From Staphylococcus phage Twort, in the sequence record NC_007021.1: a stretch of DNA of 64,000 bases; one strand, 5' to 3'. Positions 15,679 through 43,571 of the stretch are shown in pieces. The position numbers and the translations under genes were made by a program. The notes under the pieces were generated by a model. That model did not search any database. It was not told the DNA's origin and saw nothing but the letters and a program-made list of their open reading frames with translations. Positions within the stretch are counted from its first letter, which is position 1, and each line of letters begins with the position of its first letter.

Positions 15679-16353
15679 ATGAGTTACCAAGAAAGATTAA
15701 AAGAGATTAGGAAACAAAGTGATACACATAAAGAAATTAATAATAGTAAGAAGAAATATACAATGGATGAGTTAGAGCTATCTTTATTTGATAGGGATAG
15801 TGATGTTATTAAACCATTTACAAGTATTAGTAAAGATGATGAGATTAGCAGTAATGACTTATTTATTGCAACCCTACCTAATAATATTGTCCTTGCTGAT
15901 GGAACTACTTTAGAAAAAGGTCAGTATATTGGTAATAGTATGGGTAAATTATCAGACCTTGAAGATATGGAAGATTCGGGTATATCTTCTAAAACCCTCT
16001 ATGAAAATGGCCATAGAATTAACTTACTTGCTGTTGTTAATAATCCTAAGGCAGTATACACTCAAAAAGATTTAGTTGTGGATATTAAAGATGGCGTAGA
16101 AGTTAGAGACGTAACAACTAAAAGCTCTTCTGTAATTTCTAAACAAAAAATAGATTATATATCTCTTGTAGATGAATCTTACTTCGATAACCTTATAGAT
16201 GATGTTCTTAAAGATTACAATAACTTATCTAATCCTAATACCTTGCTTAAAAGATATATTAAAAACAAAGAAATGTTAGGTGAAGGTAAAAAAATGATTT
16301 ATTGTTCATTGCTAGATAAAGAAGTATTGGTTGTAGGTGGGAAAGATGAGTAG
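15679..16353 (+). CDS. hypothetical protein
   Basis: 224-aa ORF. Confidence 0.6.
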   Translation: MSYQERLKEIRKQSDTHKEINNSKKKYTMDELELSLFDRDSDVIKPFTSISKDDEISSNDLFIATLPNNIVLADGTTLEKGQYIGNSMGKLSDLEDMEDSGISSKTLYENGHRINLLAVVNNPKAVYTQKDLVVDIKDGVEVRDVTTKSSSVISKQKIDYISLVDESYFDNLIDDVLKDYNNLSNPNTLLKRYIKNKEMLGEGKKMIYCSLLDKEVLVVGGKDE

Positions 16354-16741
16354 TAAGAAATGGCTATTTTATGTATTACTTTTTGCTGTTCTATTAAGCG
16401 CTGTATTTGCATATTCTTGGACTTCTATTTACTATGAGAAAAATGCGTATGATTCAGGTGTAGTCCAAGACAGTGAAAGTAATAATACTAAAAATAATGG
16501 AGATATAGAATATGTTACAACAGTAACATTAAAAAAGGATACAGATAAGAAAGCTACATTTATGGATGAGTTACCAAACTTTTTACCTGGAAGAACGGAT
16601 GGTAAAACTATAGATAAAAGTTTTTACAAATCTAGTGACTTTCGTGAAGGTGAGAGATTTAAATTATATAGAATTTACACAAGAGATAATAATGGTGAGG
16701 TAACACATAAGTATCGTTTTGAAAAGGAAGTAGATAATTAG
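16337..16741 (+). CDS. membrane-anchored protein (N-terminal TM segment)
   Basis: Hydrophobic N-terminus; overlaps the upstream gene. Confidence 0.6.
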   Translation: MGKMSSKKWLFYVLLFAVLLSAVFAYSWTSIYYEKNAYDSGVVQDSESNNTKNNGDIEYVTTVTLKKDTDKKATFMDELPNFLPGRTDGKTIDKSFYKSSDFREGERFKLYRIYTRDNNGEVTHKYRFEKEVDN

Positions 16742-16873
16742 TGGCTCCTTTAACTATATCAATTATTATAGGTATTTGTATTATATATTATTTATTTGAG
16801 AAAGATTAGGTTAAGTGGAAGTTTTCCCTTGACCTTTTTTTATTTATCTGTATAATATTAATTAGGAGGGATT

Positions 16874-17116
16874 TTGATGATGAATTTAAAAATATTTTAT
16901 GAAGAGGTTAAACAATTAGAAAATAGAAAGATTGCCAAGGAGCAGGTATTACTAGAATCAATGAAAACATTTAGTAAGTTAAGAGGAACTTTAACAAATA
17001 GTCAATTAAGTCTTGACATTCTTTTAAATTATGGTATAGTTGAATATATCAAATATAAAAGGTATTTAGGAAGATTACAAAATTGTGTAGTAAAAGCATA
17101 TAAGGAGGAGTATTAA
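16874..17116 (+). CDS. hypothetical protein
   Basis: RBS AGGAGGGA. Confidence 0.55.
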   Translation: MMMNLKIFYEEVKQLENRKIAKEQVLLESMKTFSKLRGTLTNSQLSLDILLNYGIVEYIKYKRYLGRLQNCVVKAYKEEY

Positions 17117-17340
17117 TGTTATTTTTTAAAGAAAAGTTTTATAATGAATTAAGTTATTATAGAGGTGGACACAAGGATTTAGAAAGTATGTTTGAGTTAG
17201 CGTTAGAGTATATTGAGAAATTAGAAGAAGAAGATGAACAGCAGGTAACTGATTATGAGAACGCTATGGAAGAAGAATTAAGGGATGCTGTTGATGTAAT
17301 TGAGAGTCAGTTAGAAATTATTAAGGATATAGTTCGATGA
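17116..17340 (+). CDS. hypothetical acidic protein
   Basis: RBS AAGGAGGAG. Confidence 0.55.
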   Translation: MLFFKEKFYNELSYYRGGHKDLESMFELALEYIEKLEEEDEQQVTDYENAMEEELRDAVDVIESQLEIIKDIVR

Positions 17341-17501
17341 GTGGGTTTAATGATTTTCTTAAACAAGAATCTAAAAGGGTTAATAAACCACTCAAGAAAC
17401 AGAGAAAGAAGAAAGAAACACCTATAGAAGAAGTGCAAGAAAAGTTAGCTAAAATAAGAAGTAAATCAAAGTATATGGATTTAGGTAGGAGATATAAATG
17501 A
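17337..17501 (+). CDS. small basic protein (54 aa), translationally coupled; absent from the ORF track because it is under the size cutoff
   Basis: ATGA overlaps at both ends, with the upstream gene at 17337-17340 and the downstream gene at 17498-17501. Confidence 0.45.
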   Translation: MSGFNDFLKQESKRVNKPLKKQRKKKETPIEEVQEKLAKIRSKSKYMDLGRRYK

Positions 17502-17704
17502 AAACCTATACATGCAATAGGGTATCGGCTAGTGTTGAAGAACTTAAACAGTACAAAGATTTCAGGTTATTATTCGGGTTTGATGATGTTGTATTATATT
17601 TACTTAGTGAGCAAGATGAAGCAAAAACATTTAAAATGGAAAAGAAAGAATTAGAAAAAATAGAAAAGAAATATAGTAATGAACCTTTCTTTTCTTACTT
17701 ATAG
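17498..17704 (+). CDS. hypothetical protein
   Basis: 68-aa ORF with RBS GGTAGGAG. Confidence 0.5.
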   Translation: MKTYTCNRVSASVEELKQYKDFRLLFGFDDVVLYLLSEQDEAKTFKMEKKELEKIEKKYSNEPFFSYL

Positions 17705-17800
17705 GAGGGTATTGTAACAGGTAGTAATAATTTATAAAAACTTATAAATTTATTTGCATTTTTGGATAAAGTATGCTATGTTATATTTAGAGGTGATAAT

Positions 17801-17881
17801 ATGGCATATATGTCTATAGGAAAATTTAGTAAAGAGATAGGTGTTACACTCAAACATTACGTAATTGGCAGGGTGAATTAA
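17801..17881 (+). pseudogene. remnant of an IS607-type serine-recombinase TnpA: only the N-terminal MerR-like HTH (26 codons) survives
   Basis: MAYMSIGKFSKEIGVTLKHYVIGRVN* resembles the N-terminal HTH of IS607 OrfA proteins (the ...AK.AGVT.RTL..W pattern). Confidence 0.4.
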
Positions 17882-17884
17882 CTA

Positions 17885-18994
17885 ATGATAACGAAAAAAG
17901 TTAGACTTAAACCTACTAAACAACAGGAGTTAAAATTACGTAAATCAGCAGATATAGCACGATTTATATATAATTGGACTTTAGCAAAACAACAAGAAAA
18001 TTATAAACAAGGCAATAAATTTATACAAGATTCTGTGTTAAGAAAAGAAATAACACAATTAAAGAAAACTGAAGAGTTTAGATGGTTAAATGAAGTAAGT
18101 AATAATATTCCTAAGCAAGCAGTTAAAGATGCTTGTAATGCTTACAAAAGATTTTTTAAAAAACAATCTGGTTTTCCTAAATTTAAATCTAAAAAGAAAA
18201 CAAGACCTAGTTTCTATAATGATACACAAAAACTAAAAGTAAAAGAAAAATCAGTATTATTAGAAAAAGTGGGTTGGGTTAGAACATCTGAACAATTACC
18301 TGTAGGTACTAAGTACTACAATCCTAGAATCACTTTTGATGGTAAATATTGGTATATAAGTGTTTCTATTGAAGAAGAAAATAAATATGAAGAACTAACA
18401 AACGAATCTTTAGGTATTGATTTAGGAATAAAAGAATTAGCCGTATGCTCTGATGGAAGTATTTATGAAAATATTAACAAAACAATAAGAGTTAAAAAAC
18501 TAGAAAAACGATTACGTAGATTGCAACGTAAGGTATCTCGTAAATACCAAAATAATAAAGAAGGGAGTACCTTTGTCAAAACTTGCAATATTATAAAACT
18601 TGAAAAACAAATTAAACTCTTACAACGAAGATTGTCTAACATTCGTAAAAACTATTTACATCAAACAACAACTTCTATAGTGAAAACCAAACCTAGAAGA
18701 ATTGTTATAGAAGATTTGAATGTAAGTGGTATGATGAAGAATAGACACTTAGCTAAAGCAATACAAAAACAAGGATTCTATGAGTTCCGTAAACAACTAG
18801 AATATAAGTGTGGAAGAAAAGGTATAGAACTTGTTATTGCAGATAGATTCTTTCCTTCTAGTAAAACATGCTCTAATTGTGGTAACATCCACAAAAACTT
18901 AAAACTATCAGATAGAATATTTAAGTGTGACTGTGGTTTTAGTATTGATAGAGACCTTAATGCTAGTATTAATTTAGCTAATTATAATATTTAG
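17885..18994 (+). CDS. tnpB: TnpB (OrfB, IS605/IS607 family); RuvC-like RNA-guided nuclease, apparently intact
   Basis: N-terminal K.RL.PTK.QE...ARF.YN. RuvC-I GIDLGI, RuvC-II IEDLNV, zinc finger CSNCGN...CDCG, and RuvC-III DRDLNASINL. Confidence 0.85.
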   Translation: MITKKVRLKPTKQQELKLRKSADIARFIYNWTLAKQQENYKQGNKFIQDSVLRKEITQLKKTEEFRWLNEVSNNIPKQAVKDACNAYKRFFKKQSGFPKFKSKKKTRPSFYNDTQKLKVKEKSVLLEKVGWVRTSEQLPVGTKYYNPRITFDGKYWYISVSIEEENKYEELTNESLGIDLGIKELAVCSDGSIYENINKTIRVKKLEKRLRRLQRKVSRKYQNNKEGSTFVKTCNIIKLEKQIKLLQRRLSNIRKNYLHQTTTSIVKTKPRRIVIEDLNVSGMMKNRHLAKAIQKQGFYEFRKQLEYKCGRKGIELVIADRFFPSSKTCSNCGNIHKNLKLSDRIFKCDCGFSIDRDLNASINLANYNI

Positions 18995-19153
18995 ATTATC
19001 ACTAATAAGATACTAAATATATGTACCATTCGTTGTATGGGAATTTAAGCCTTTGGAGTATCATACAAACTTGAGTAGAGTAAATGAATATAGTAATTTA
19101 CTCAAAAGGGGATACGTTGAAAAAGGAATATAATTTATAAAGTTTTATAAATT
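18995..19153 (+). ncRNA. candidate omega RNA / right-end region of the TnpB element
   Basis: Called from position, on the 3' flank of tnpB. There is a hairpin GAGTAAAT...ATTTACTC and a terminal palindrome. No covariance evidence. Confidence 0.3.
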
Positions 19154-19171
19154 TTTGACAACGGGAATCAT

Positions 19172-19372
19172 ATGTTAACTATTCTAGTACTCATTTGGGT
19201 ATTACTATTTTTAACTGTTTTATTTAATATTAAAGTAGGGAATATTTTTATTCTAGGTGATTATGTAGAATTTAAAGACAAATTTGTGGCAGTATCGTTC
19301 TTATTATTTTTATTGCTGTCTATGTTAATTGGTTTAATAATTATTCTTAAAGGAGTGTATGGACAATGGTAA
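19172..19372 (+). CDS. small membrane protein
   Basis: Hydrophobic 66-aa ORF. Confidence 0.45.
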   Translation: MLTILVLIWVLLFLTVLFNIKVGNIFILGDYVEFKDKFVAVSFLLFLLLSMLIGLIIILKGVYGQW

Positions 19373-19644
19373 AAGGAAACATTAAAGAACTTTTAAATTG
19401 TATTTGTGGTTGTGTAGATTCATTTATGGATGAAGGTAAAAGTTATGTAGTGTATTCAGACAAAAAAGTATTTGTTAAGTATAAAGGTGTTGTTATTGCA
19501 AGTATTGAAGATGATGTTGTTCATAGTAATGTATACCAACTTAAGACTGGTACTATAGAAAAACAAACCTTATATACTTTAGTTAAAGCACTTCAGTATT
19601 TAGTTAGTCTGGAGTATAGAGAACGAGAAGATATAAATATTTAA
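19366..19644 (+). CDS. hypothetical protein
   Basis: 92-aa ORF. Confidence 0.55.
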   Translation: MVKGNIKELLNCICGCVDSFMDEGKSYVVYSDKKVFVKYKGVVIASIEDDVVHSNVYQLKTGTIEKQTLYTLVKALQYLVSLEYREREDINI

Positions 19645-19653
19645 AAAAGTTTA

Positions 19654-19686
19654 GGGAATCTGTTGACATTCAGATTCCCTTTTGTT
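19654..19686 (+). terminator. terminator hairpin that overlaps the next -35
   Basis: GGGAATCTG-ttgacatt-CAGATTCCC followed by TTTT. Confidence 0.7.
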
Positions 19687-19691
19687 ATACT
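19663..19691 (+). promoter_or_regulatory. sigma-70-type promoter (TTGACA-17-TATACT)
   Basis: Consensus elements; the -35 sits in the terminator loop. Confidence 0.65.
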
Positions 19692-19722
19692 CTAATTAAG
19701 ATAAGAAAAGGAGATGTTTCAT

Positions 19723-20286
19723 ATGAAAAAATTATTTATGGTAGGAAGTTTAGGTCTGATGTTATTCGTAGGAGGTTGTGGTACTACAGAGCATAAAGAA
19801 GGTTCTCTGGAATCTAACACTAATGAAGTTGTAACAACAGAACAAAGTACAACACAAGAGTATAATGGAAGTAGTGAAGGTGGAAACGGAAACCCTAATG
19901 CAAATGTAACAACTGACCCAAGTGAAAAATATTTATCTGACTTTTTTGAGTCTAGGGCACAAGGAACAATATTAGATAGATTAGACCGCTATGCAGAATT
20001 AGTAGGTAAAATTAATAACCCAGAGGAAAACGTAGAAGCAGAAACATTACAATATGCTATTAAGAATATGGACACTTATGTAGAAGAGTTACCTGTTGAA
20101 ACAGAAGACGATGCTAAGGCACAAGAACAACTAAGACAAATGGTTCAATACTATAAGCAAGCAAATGAAAACTTTAAAGAATACCAAGATACTGGTGATA
20201 TAAATAAACTAAATAAAGGTAACGAAATGTATAATGAAGGATATACTTTAGAAGTAGAAGTAAAAAGAGGGACTAACTTAATTTAG
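19723..20286 (+). CDS. lipoprotein (signal peptide plus a LFVGGC lipobox-like motif)
   Basis: The ORF track starts at 19714. The ATG at 19723 is 9 nt after AAAAGGAG. The N-terminus is MKKLFMVGSLGLMLFVGGCGT. Confidence 0.65.
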   Translation: MKKLFMVGSLGLMLFVGGCGTTEHKEGSLESNTNEVVTTEQSTTQEYNGSSEGGNGNPNANVTTDPSEKYLSDFFESRAQGTILDRLDRYAELVGKINNPEENVEAETLQYAIKNMDTYVEELPVETEDDAKAQEQLRQMVQYYKQANENFKEYQDTGDINKLNKGNEMYNEGYTLEVEVKRGTNLI

Positions 20287-20302
20287 GAGGAGGAGATAAA
20301 TA

Positions 20303-20659
20303 ATGGAAAGAGTTACATGGGAAGATATTAAAAGATTAATAATACGCAATGGAACACTAGTACCACCGAATCTGCATGTTTATACAATAGGCAACTATCA
20401 AATTAATTATCATATACTAGAAGATAAAATATGTTTATGCAAGGATAATGTAGAAGTAGCAGTCATAAAAGGACATATGCCTTGTCATATCACAGAGTTA
20501 GAGGAGGTTACTAATAAAGCACTAAGGTTAAATAAGGGTATTACAAGTGTAATTGATTACTATAAGAAACAATACTTGTATTATAATAAATTAGAAAATG
20601 AAAGAAAAGAGCAGGAAGAAGAGAAACTAGAAAAGTTACAATCTTTTATGAATAAATAA
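20303..20659 (+). CDS. hypothetical protein; paralog of ORF 27387
   Basis: RBS GGAGGAGG. The C-terminus resembles that of the 27387..27731 product. Confidence 0.6.
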   Translation: MERVTWEDIKRLIIRNGTLVPPNLHVYTIGNYQINYHILEDKICLCKDNVEVAVIKGHMPCHITELEEVTNKALRLNKGITSVIDYYKKQYLYYNKLENERKEQEEEKLEKLQSFMNK

Positions 20660-20672
20660 GGAGGAATAGCTA

Positions 20673-20873
20673 ATGCGCCATGTAGAAATTAGGGAAAAAA
20701 TAAACGGGAAACAGGTTATTGTATTCTTTAAAAACCATTTCTTTAATAGAACTGTTGTGGTACTTGATTTAGATACAGGAGAACTTATCAATTTACCTAA
20801 AAAATCTATAGAGGAAGTGTATCCTATTTTAGTAGGGAACTTAGATACAAAAGAATTAAAAAAATATATTTAA
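20673..20873 (+). CDS. hypothetical protein
   Basis: RBS AAGGAGGAA. Confidence 0.55.
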   Translation: MRHVEIREKINGKQVIVFFKNHFFNRTVVVLDLDTGELINLPKKSIEEVYPILVGNLDTKELKKYI

Positions 20874-20886
20874 AGGAGAATTTATT

Positions 20887-21339
20887 ATGAGTAAATTAGA
20901 TTTATTAAAAGATATTGATATTGTTGAGTATTTAGAGGAACGAGATGTAGTAGAAGGTGTCGTAGGTAAACATAATGTTACTGTTAGGAAGGTACTAGAT
21001 AGTGAGTATGTTATAACTGTAGAGGGTGTAAAATATGAAAAAGTAGAGGGGTTCGACCTTCTAGTAGAACTATATCAAATTAAGTACTTTACTAAAGAAG
21101 ATATGAATAAAAAGTTAGAAAAAATATCTTCAGATATTCAAAAAGTAAAATTAGAAAAAGAATTAAGAGAAGAATTAAATAGCTTACTAAAGGGTATTGA
21201 AGAGAATTTAGTACATATTAAAGCCTTATTATTAACTAGTGAAGAACAAGGGTATACCCAAAACCTATTTAAACTTAATACTGGATACGAATCCATTAAA
21301 ATTATGAATGATATTATTAAATTTATTAAACATAAATAA
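20887..21339 (+). CDS. hypothetical protein
   Basis: RBS AAAGGAGAA. Confidence 0.6.
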   Translation: MSKLDLLKDIDIVEYLEERDVVEGVVGKHNVTVRKVLDSEYVITVEGVKYEKVEGFDLLVELYQIKYFTKEDMNKKLEKISSDIQKVKLEKELREELNSLLKGIEENLVHIKALLLTSEEQGYTQNLFKLNTGYESIKIMNDIIKFIKHK

Positions 21340-43130: not shown

Positions 43131-43491
43131 CTATAAAAATAAAAAAAGTACCTACAAATTAATGTAGATACTTATACTATAATTATAGAATTTTAGGTGT
43201 GTACATGAAGGATAACTCATGTAGGGTTTAGTAGTAAGATACAAAGCGTCTACCACGCAACATACAACACCTCTTGTATGTTATTATATACGTACTGGAA
43301 GAAGTTACCAGTAGGAACCTACAGTCATATACAAAGCCTATGCCAGGCAATATATGGTATATCTCATATATCAGGTATAATACCTTATAATGATTATCTT
43401 GTAACCTATAACTTCTGATAATTAGGGTTTTATAATAATTACTGTATAAGTAACTATAACCTATAAGTTTTTTGCATGCTAGGGGCTATAA

Positions 43492-43563
43492 TGGACTCTG
43501 TAGGGATTGAACCTACACTCCAACGCTTATGAGGCGTTTGCTTTACCATTAAGCTAAGAGTCC
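43492..43563 (-). tRNA. tRNA-Met (anticodon CAT)
   Basis: A full cloverleaf folds by hand: acceptor GGACTCT/AGAGTCC, D arm GCTT-AATGGTA-AAGC, anticodon arm AACGC-CTCATAA-GCGTT, T arm GTAGG-TTCAATC-CCTAC. CCA is not encoded. Confidence 0.85.
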
Positions 43564-43571
43564 ACAACAGT

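Follow-up and report, generated by a model that had tools for sequence, protein, structure and literature searches.

We identified an inserted element of 1456 bp in the genome of Staphylococcus phage Twort (NC_007021.1), within a stretch of 64,000 nt that we refer to as the window and to whose positions all coordinates below belong. The element is a non-autonomous member of the IS607 family which carries an intact gene for the nuclease TnpB, a remnant of the transposase gene tnpA and a predicted guide-RNA scaffold. We consider it probable that TnpB, directed by its guide RNA, serves as a homing nuclease between phages that infect the same cell. The element was assigned to IS607 because of its TnpA partner, its RAGATH-18 RNA motif and the similarity of its nuclease to that of ISFba1.

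Boundaries and contents of the element

The limits of the element, 17709..19164, follow from the comparison of filled with empty junctions and correct the unit 17729..19153 given in an earlier note on this DNA. The two flanks of the Twort insertion, when joined, were found as contiguous sequence in phage vB_SpsM-DH2 (76% identity) and in three Logan contigs (L130-132), which are much closer relatives with a right flank that is 95% identical. With the junction marked by a slash, the empty allele is CTTATAGGAGG/TGACTTCATG in the three contigs and AAAGAGG/TGAATTTATG in DH2. The order of segments is thus CTTATAGGAGG/TGACTTC/ATG in the empty allele and CTTATAGGAGG/(GTATTG...ACGG)/GAATCAT/ATG in Twort, where the insertion has split the Shine-Dalgarno sequence GGAGG from the ATG of a 66-aa gene. 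As a result of the insertion, the Shine-Dalgarno sequence of this gene was displaced by 1.46 kb upstream. The left flank ending in ...GGAGG, the right end in ...ACGG and the lack of a target-site duplication relative to the empty alleles are the junction features of IS607 elements. The position of the boundaries is uncertain by +/-1-2 nt because GG is present at both junctions. Among the phage copies, homology begins just past the GG of the left flank and stops abruptly at the right with the invariant ...TTTTTGACAACGG. The earlier note had proposed a comparison with relatives that lack the segment, which would separate an insertion from a segment held with the same flanks by every related phage. 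Since empty sites exist in DH2 and the three contigs and the element occupies many other sites elsewhere, these alignments identify 17709..19164 as a discrete insertion. The features of the element and its flanks, all on the + strand, are as follows.

17704..17708, +, left-flank GGAGG, predicted target-adjacent motif (TAM), and in uninterrupted alleles the Shine-Dalgarno sequence of the gene downstream
17709..19164, +, inserted element, 1456 bp, non-autonomous IS607-family, from homology limits and empty alleles
17709..17728, +, left-end terminal segment GTATTGTAACAGGTAGTAAT, with a second GG at 17720-17721
17729..17750, +, left subterminal palindrome AATTTATAA-AAAC-TTATAAATT, exact motif match
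17754..17782, +, putative left-end promoter, -35 TTGCAT at 17754-59, 17-nt spacer, TGc-TATGTT at 17777-82
17790-96, +, ribosome-binding site GAGGTGA, 3' of the putative promoter
17801..17881, +, tnpA stub of 26 codons, MAYMSIGKFSKEIGVTLKHYVIGRVN, 16 codons of a MerR-type helix-turn-helix (HTH) serine recombinase and then a frameshift and a large deletion
17885..18994, +, tnpB, 369-aa RuvC nuclease (RNA-guided by homology), ATG start, with Pfam, NCBIfam and PDB matches
18995..19164, +, predicted guide-RNA (reRNA/omegaRNA) scaffold, 5' flank ~18995-19049, RAGATH-18 core 19050-19128, 3' flank 19129-19164 ending ...ACGG
19132..19153, +, right subterminal palindrome AATTTATAA-AGTT-TTATAAATT, exact motif match, inside the 3' flank of the scaffold
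19165..19184, +, predicted 20-nt guide/target GAATCATATGTTAACTATTC in the phage flank, starting at the first non-conserved base after ...ACGG and including the start codon at 19172
19172..19372, +, downstream phage gene from the open reading frame (ORF) list, 66 aa, named in the record 'putative membrane protein [Staphylococcus phage Twort]'

The ORF at 17885..18994 was matched above the curated cut-offs by three Pfam domains in the canonical TnpB order, namely HTH_OrfB_IS605 (residues 3-45, 3e-16), OrfB_IS605 (residues 160-287, 5e-20) and Cas12f1-like_TNB (residues 298-364, 4e-23). It scored 326 bits with the NCBIfam model guided_TnpB (cut-off 100), and stayed below the cut-offs of both the exception-level model IS607_TnpB (198 bits, cut-off 350) and the model IS200_TnpB (269.5, cut-off 425). 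The RuvC triad is formed by D179 in GIDLG, E276 in IEDLN and D357 in DRDLN, and the zinc ribbon by C329-x2-C332...C348-x-C350. The best solved relative was found to be the IS607 TnpB of ISFba1 (PDB 8iaz_A), which aligns over residues 5-365 with 44% identity (E = 8e-88). In this alignment D179, E276 and D357 are located at D194, E290 and D371 of ISFba1, and the deposited protein is a mutant with Ala in place of D371. Both the identity of the protein and the intactness of its catalytic centre, which the earlier note had read from the ORF, are therefore borne out by profile search and alignment. An identical protein is on record as 'transposase / mobile element protein [Staphylococcus phage Twort]' (AAX92317.1, YP_238637.1), so that the gene is already annotated, although only generically as a transposase. 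From its identity to the active ISFba1 enzyme, Twort TnpB is predicted to cleave double-stranded DNA in an RNA-guided and TAM-dependent manner.

The terminal segment at the left has homologues at the beginning of the left end in VL10, IMGVR6, RSM-J51Sa, L137, L138 and L140. The pattern AATTTATAA-N4-TTATAAATT, which forms the two palindromes, was observed exactly twice in the 64 kb against a chance expectation of 0.25, and at least two matches occurred in 5 of 100 shuffles. Compared with each other, the palindromes are identical at 20 of 22 positions in inverted and at 19 of 22 in direct orientation. The earlier note had correctly placed them and described them as near-perfect inverted copies, but had taken them as the termini of the unit; they are subterminal, 20 nt from the left and 11 nt from the right end, and the ends are set by the GG junctions. 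Judging from the sequences that follow the palindrome, TTATTTGCAT at the left and TTTTGACAAC at the right, the two ends are arranged as direct repeats. The position of the left palindrome is conserved in all copies that retain a left end, and a right end in which the palindrome is followed by TTTTGGCAACGG was also found in bacterial and metagenomic relatives. The left palindrome is presumably the binding site of the MerR-type HTH of TnpA. The putative promoter is conserved in position and sequence among the copies, with TTGCAT-17-TATAAT in phage 110. A TTGACA at the right end was considered as an outward promoter for the downstream gene and rejected, since the right end is just 7 nt away from the ATG and is not followed by a -10 element. 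At the left end, the orphaned GGAGG is followed by GTA TTG TAA (17704-17720), which is a possible start-stop mini-ORF.

Guide RNA, target site and proposed mechanism

Downstream of tnpB, where the earlier note had predicted a guide RNA, the Rfam family RAGATH-18 (RF03064) was found at 19050-19128 (+) with 67.6 bits (gathering score 44.9) over the full model (1-71). Bacterial relatives score similarly, at 66-77 bits. In the reRNA of IS607-type TnpBs, RAGATH-18 forms the core, and its conserved 5' and 3' flanks are followed by a variable guide (Ren et al. 2024, PMC11061315), and the IS607 scaffold has been described to end in ...UCGG with the guide beginning at the next base (Zedaveinyte et al., bioRxiv 10.1101/2023.11.20.567912). 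In nine phage copies, homology extends from the tnpB stop codon through the right end. Because this homology stops at ACGG and because of the published end of the IS607 scaffold, we place the scaffold at ~18995-19164 and the guide at 19165-19184. The guide-RNA region is 86-96% identical among the copies as compared with 76-85% at the third codon positions of tnpB, and its variation is mostly found in the apical loop. As an example of pairing that is kept, CCAT..ATGG has changed to CCGT..ACGG in phage 110 and PG-2021_10, a compensatory change. No second RAGATH-18 was found in the window. No group I intron was matched by Rfam in 16000-21000 at E up to 1, nor in the whole window at the gathering score, and for this reason we do not class the element as an IStron. 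The sole other Rfam match at gathering score was a tRNA-Met (anticodon CAT) at 43491-43564 (-), the only tRNA of the window.

The left flanks of the insertions are highly conserved. At 13 phage sites, G occupies positions -1 and -2 in every case and A occupies position -3 in 12, while positions -4 and -5 are mostly purines. The resulting consensus RRAGG represents the Shine-Dalgarno sequence of the gene that follows, whose ATG lies 6-10 nt past the right end at 11 of the 13 sites. The published TAMs of RAGATH-18-type IS607 TnpBs are 5'-AGGAG or 5'-GAGGG (PMC11061315). Inside the element, the template of the guide is preceded by AACGG as against RRAGG at the left flanks, and at the sequence level position -3 (A or C) separates target from self. 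A parallel is found in the IS607 element of C. botulinum, where TGGG stands against TCGG (bioRxiv 10.1101/2023.11.20.567912).

The following mechanism is proposed for the Twort element; transcription, guide loading and cutting are deduced from homologues, and the outcome of repair is conjecture. The tnpB gene and the downstream scaffold would be transcribed together, either from the left-end promoter or by read-through of the co-oriented phage genes upstream. TnpB would bind the scaffold that ends ...ACGG at 19164, and the next ~20 nt (19165-19184) would act as the guide. The complex would then cut DNA in which RRAGG directly precedes a sequence matching the guide, which is the same locus in a co-infecting phage without the insert. 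The Twort copy itself would be spared because the -3 base beside its guide template is C rather than A. Repair of the broken genome from the element-bearing one would copy the element (homing, or gene drive); alternatively, the competitor genome would be lost. Transposition to a new site would need TnpA in trans, for example from a copy of the VL10 type.

In related phages, empty alleles were matched at 20 of 20 positions by the guides of phiSA12 and phage 110 beside a RRAGG-like motif, which speaks for this mechanism. Within the window, the Twort guide is matched at no other place. When Twort was compared with the empty allele of L130 (2994-3013; also L131 and L132), 10 of the 20 target positions were observed to differ. 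Nearby there are few differences, with 30 in the 821 nt that follow (3.7%) and a single one in the final 75 nt of the left flank. This hypervariable patch coincides exactly with the target of the Twort guide, and it could reflect either escape from cutting by TnpB or a locally relaxed constraint.

Several observations weigh against a functional homing system in Twort. No target matching the Twort guide was found in known phages, the closest empty alleles being those with 10 of 20 differences. Escape mutations were also not found at the phage 110 and phiSA12 sites, where the empty alleles have 0-1 mismatches in target positions 1-20; strong ongoing pressure from the nuclease is therefore not evident, and the idea that empty alleles are generally escape-mutated in the target was rejected. 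Among the residues of ISFba1 that contact the TAM, K83, N121 and Y117 are kept in Twort TnpB but two are changed (K80 to N74 and N122 to D113), and because of these two differences the TAM given here is the one read from the flanks. The 3' flank between RAGATH-18 and the guide measures 36 nt as against 64 nt in ISFba1, for which reason the function of the scaffold is put forward as a prediction. In addition, the single-sequence fold of the scaffold is no better than that of shuffled sequences (z = -1.07). Finally, a scan for consensus promoters did not report the left-end promoter of Twort, which is a weak match to the consensus.

Spread among phages, transposase decay and selection

A megablast search returned matches to the element only, at 86-90% identity, in 61 Staphylococcus Herelleviridae records. 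We mapped 13 junction sites, which are distributed over Twort, Silviavirus, Sepunavirus, Kayvirus, Baoshanvirus and unclassified Twortvirinae, and a fourteenth, 5'-truncated site in Romulus-type phages. Copies with ~86-92% identity thus occupy 13 sites besides that of Twort, all in Staphylococcus Twortvirinae. An orthologous insertion site in Twort and RSM-J51Sa was considered and rejected: the elements are 86.4% identical but the flanks are 48-52% identical and effectively unalignable. Where filled and empty alleles of one site could be compared, their flanks were found to be 97-100% identical. The element was present in ~10 of 238, 10 of 20 and 1 of 50 related phage records at three sites, and exact empty alleles were found in 228 records for the phiSA12 site, 10 for phage 110, 49 for VL10, 234 for L144 and 4 for L140. 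As judged from these alleles, the element has been mobile among phages. In a protein search, which gave 5283 close homologues, the ~40 clusters at 80% identity or more were all located on contigs of at most 145 kb or in named Staphylococcus phages, and the first chromosome-sized contigs appeared at 71% identity. A genome scan of species-representative bacterial genomes gave a best match of 66% identity.

We also noticed a second and more distant tnpB family (~66-70% nucleotide identity). Many phages of the Staphylococcus Herelleviridae have it, often with 2-3 locations in one genome. Examples are V1SA19, SAP_01, HM01 and Stau2, together with L142:1-745 and L144:5179-6110, and some contigs carry both families.

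The history of the transposase gene was read from phage vB_SauM_VL10, which has the same element with an ORF of 204 aa upstream of tnpB. This ORF is an IS607-type serine transposase because it contains MerR HTH and Resolvase domains. At 16 of 16 positions the Twort peptide MAYMSIGKFSKEIGVT agrees with the N-terminus of VL10 TnpA, which supports the proposal of the earlier note that the 26-codon ORF is the N-terminus of a decayed IS607 tnpA. In the DNA alignment, Twort was observed to have a 1-nt deletion after 17847 and a ~505-bp deletion joined at 17870/17871. A complete IS607 TnpA, with MerR HTH and serine recombinase domains, is thus found in VL10, while 16 in-frame HTH codons remain in Twort. 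By this alignment, the Twort copy is a deletion derivative of an IS607-family element and not a complete IS607.

Decay of tnpA has taken at least five different ways among the phage copies. An ORF of 86 aa with the MerR domain only, the resolvase domain being deleted, is kept in phiSA12, PSU6, PALS_1, S25-4 and L144; such ORFs lie at L004:2752-3012, L043:2588-2845, L046:2255-2512, L047:2252-2512 and L144:2251-2511. The ORF is annotated as 'MerR family transcriptional regulator' and may have been retained to regulate by binding to the palindromes of the ends. In phage 110 tnpA is missing altogether, and in Romulus and Remus the entire left end has been lost. VL10 is the sole copy with an intact tnpA, and in its TnpB (L001:3680-4789) an Arg replaces the first Cys of the zinc ribbon (RSNCG as compared with CSNCG).

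The nuclease gene presents a different picture from this decay. All nine tnpB copies compared have 369 codons and an intact D-E-D triad, and the ratio of non-synonymous to synonymous substitution rates (dN/dS) between Twort and each of eight other phage copies was 0.10-0.15 at dS 0.3-0.65. Together with the conservation of the scaffold, these values place the nuclease and its guide RNA under purifying selection while the transposase decays.

Such strong selection in lytic phages could also be expected if TnpB had been domesticated for a phage function, either as a weapon against competitors or as an RNA-guided regulator of the adjacent gene, and the earlier note had offered a domesticated TnpB beside a TnpB-only insertion-sequence remnant. 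The confinement of the lineage to phages and the overlap of the guide with the ribosome-binding and start region of a phage gene are in keeping with domestication, and phage-encoded regulators derived from TnpB (TldR) are known (PMC10705468). We nevertheless regard it as unlikely. The element is patchy among near-identical phages and sits at varied sites; this filled/empty distribution fits a selfish element and not a fixed phage gene. Its RuvC triad is intact, unlike that of TldR, and binding to its own genome for regulation is not expected where AACGG and not RRAGG precedes the guide template. As for a weapon, the killing of a competitor and homing are mechanistically one reaction. The remnant therefore stands, with tnpA deleted, and among the roles that the earlier note had listed (homing, anti-competitor, regulatory) homing is the one we favour and a regulatory nuclease found no support.

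An inert relic, that is, a leftover 'transposase' ORF which is inactive and passively carried, would accommodate the destruction of tnpA, by which self-transposition is lost, the lack of a target for the Twort guide in known phages and the unspecific GenBank label. It is quite improbable in view of the low dN/dS and of the 369 codons and the triad, which are invariant in nine copies at different sites. Furthermore, third codon positions vary more than the non-coding guide-RNA region, and conservation is much higher in the element as a whole than in its flanks. That the Twort copy is an autonomous IS607 element which transposes at present is hardly conceivable, for although both ends are intact with GG junctions and palindromes, autonomy is refuted by the 16 in-frame codons and deleted resolvase domain of tnpA, and no second tnpA was found in the window.

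Insertion-site preference, related systems and significance

Insertion between a Shine-Dalgarno sequence and an ATG was found to extend beyond Twort. At 63 of 84 distinct sites (L001-L129, including the window with 19164/19172), an ATG-initiated ORF begins 4-16 nt after the right end with a mode of 7-8 nt, compared with 8.5% of random positions. This preference, together with the right-end architecture, is common to the bacterial and metagenomic relatives of the TnpB subfamily. No mention of a preference for the spacer between Shine-Dalgarno sequence and ATG was found in the two key papers on these elements.

IS607 elements are not expected to duplicate their target. At 4 of the 13 phage insertions, target nucleotides 1-9 to 1-11 were nonetheless observed to be copied directly after the GG of the left flank, as checked against the empty alleles. 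The copies match at 9/9 positions in VL10, 11/11 in phiSA12, 10/10 in L144 and 9/11 in phage 110. The four stretches are L001:2999-3011, L004:2654-2666, L002:2891-2903 and L144 ~2160-2175. More distant examples were found in L011 and L092, with 9 nt and 8 nt respectively, and the Twort copy has none. A length of 9-11 nt is in the range expected to allow binding of the guide without cleavage. An explanation in which these copies merely rebuild the stop codon of the gene upstream accounts for three sites but not for L144 and was rejected. Two further candidates were left aside: a left-side copy in L109 looks like a remnant of an upstream right end (…AGTAACGG) and was not counted, and the repeat of a right-side duplication in L140 is already present in the empty alleles of Alsa phages.

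A wider reading can be built on these observations, in which this phage-confined lineage of IS607 TnpB is an RNA-guided gene drive among lytic Staphylococcus Twortvirinae. The element may land in the short stretch, a few nucleotides long, that separates the start codon from the Shine-Dalgarno sequence (also its TAM), and may then home into co-infecting genomes. The patch of 10 mismatches in 20 in relatives that are otherwise 96% identical may be the scar of an arms race. The left-end copies of 9-11 nt may be footprints of repair triggered by TnpB, or binding sites that the nuclease cannot cleave. We put forward this reading with all its parts as tentative, since we rate its joint probability at somewhat below even.

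The kind of element is known, as it is a deletion derivative of the RAGATH-18 class of IS607. Its closest counterpart is ISFba1, whose TnpB is a biochemically and structurally characterised RAGATH-18-guided nuclease (PMC11061315; PDB 8IAZ). The two share the domain order, the D-E-D triad, 44% identity over the full length and a RAGATH-18 core which lies 3' of tnpB, is bounded by conserved flanks and is followed by a variable guide, as well as a purine-rich TAM resembling a Shine-Dalgarno sequence (AGGAG or GAGGG as published, RRAGG at the left flanks of the phage insertions). They differ in the host, which is a lytic Staphylococcus phage for the Twort element and a gut Firmicute for ISFba1. 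In addition to the shorter 3' flank and the deleted tnpA, the Twort TnpB has K80 and N122 replaced and lacks the N61/N62 loop, and the Twort element is known from its sequence.

The CboIStron of C. botulinum (bioRxiv 10.1101/2023.11.20.567912) likewise has a serine-recombinase partner and a GG core at both junctions. Its scaffold also ends ..CGG, its TAM ends in GG and differs at -3 from the pseudo-TAM of the right end, and homing into the empty donor site has been proposed for it. In contrast to the CboIStron, the Twort element has no group I intron match and has the TAM RRAGG in place of TGGG, and its presumed targets are the genomes of co-infecting phages and not sister chromosomes.

Free-standing homing endonuclease genes of phages (T4 SegF, Seg/Mob; PMC13565253) resemble the Twort element in being small, patchily distributed and located between conserved phage genes, and in their expected preferential inheritance in mixed infection. 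The Twort target, unlike theirs, would be recognised by an RNA copied from the flank and not by the protein, the nuclease is of the RuvC and not of the GIY-YIG, HNH or LAGLIDADG type, and self-immunity would come from the insertion itself and one base of the TAM. TldR proteins, which are nuclease-dead TnpB-like repressors of prophages (PMC10705468), share with Twort TnpB a phage location and an adjacent guide RNA. They lack the RuvC catalytic residues and target host promoters, in contrast to the Twort protein with D179, E276 and D357 and a guide taken from its own flank.

No paper on TnpB in Twort-like phages was found in the literature searched, and one paper on phage genomics does no more than name RAGATH-18 in a list of non-coding RNAs. 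A review of 2026 treats 'non-restorative homing' of transposons in phages as a theoretical possibility only (PMC13565253). Natural pairs of filled and empty phages with identical targets, such as phage 110 with 80A/80B and phiSA12 with JD007, make the system easy to test. If the Twort element is active, RNA-guided homing would occur in lytic phages too, beyond bacterial chromosomes and plasmids. Twort-like phages are in therapeutic use, and a self-spreading nuclease able to reshuffle or exclude co-infecting phages would be of relevance for phage cocktails.

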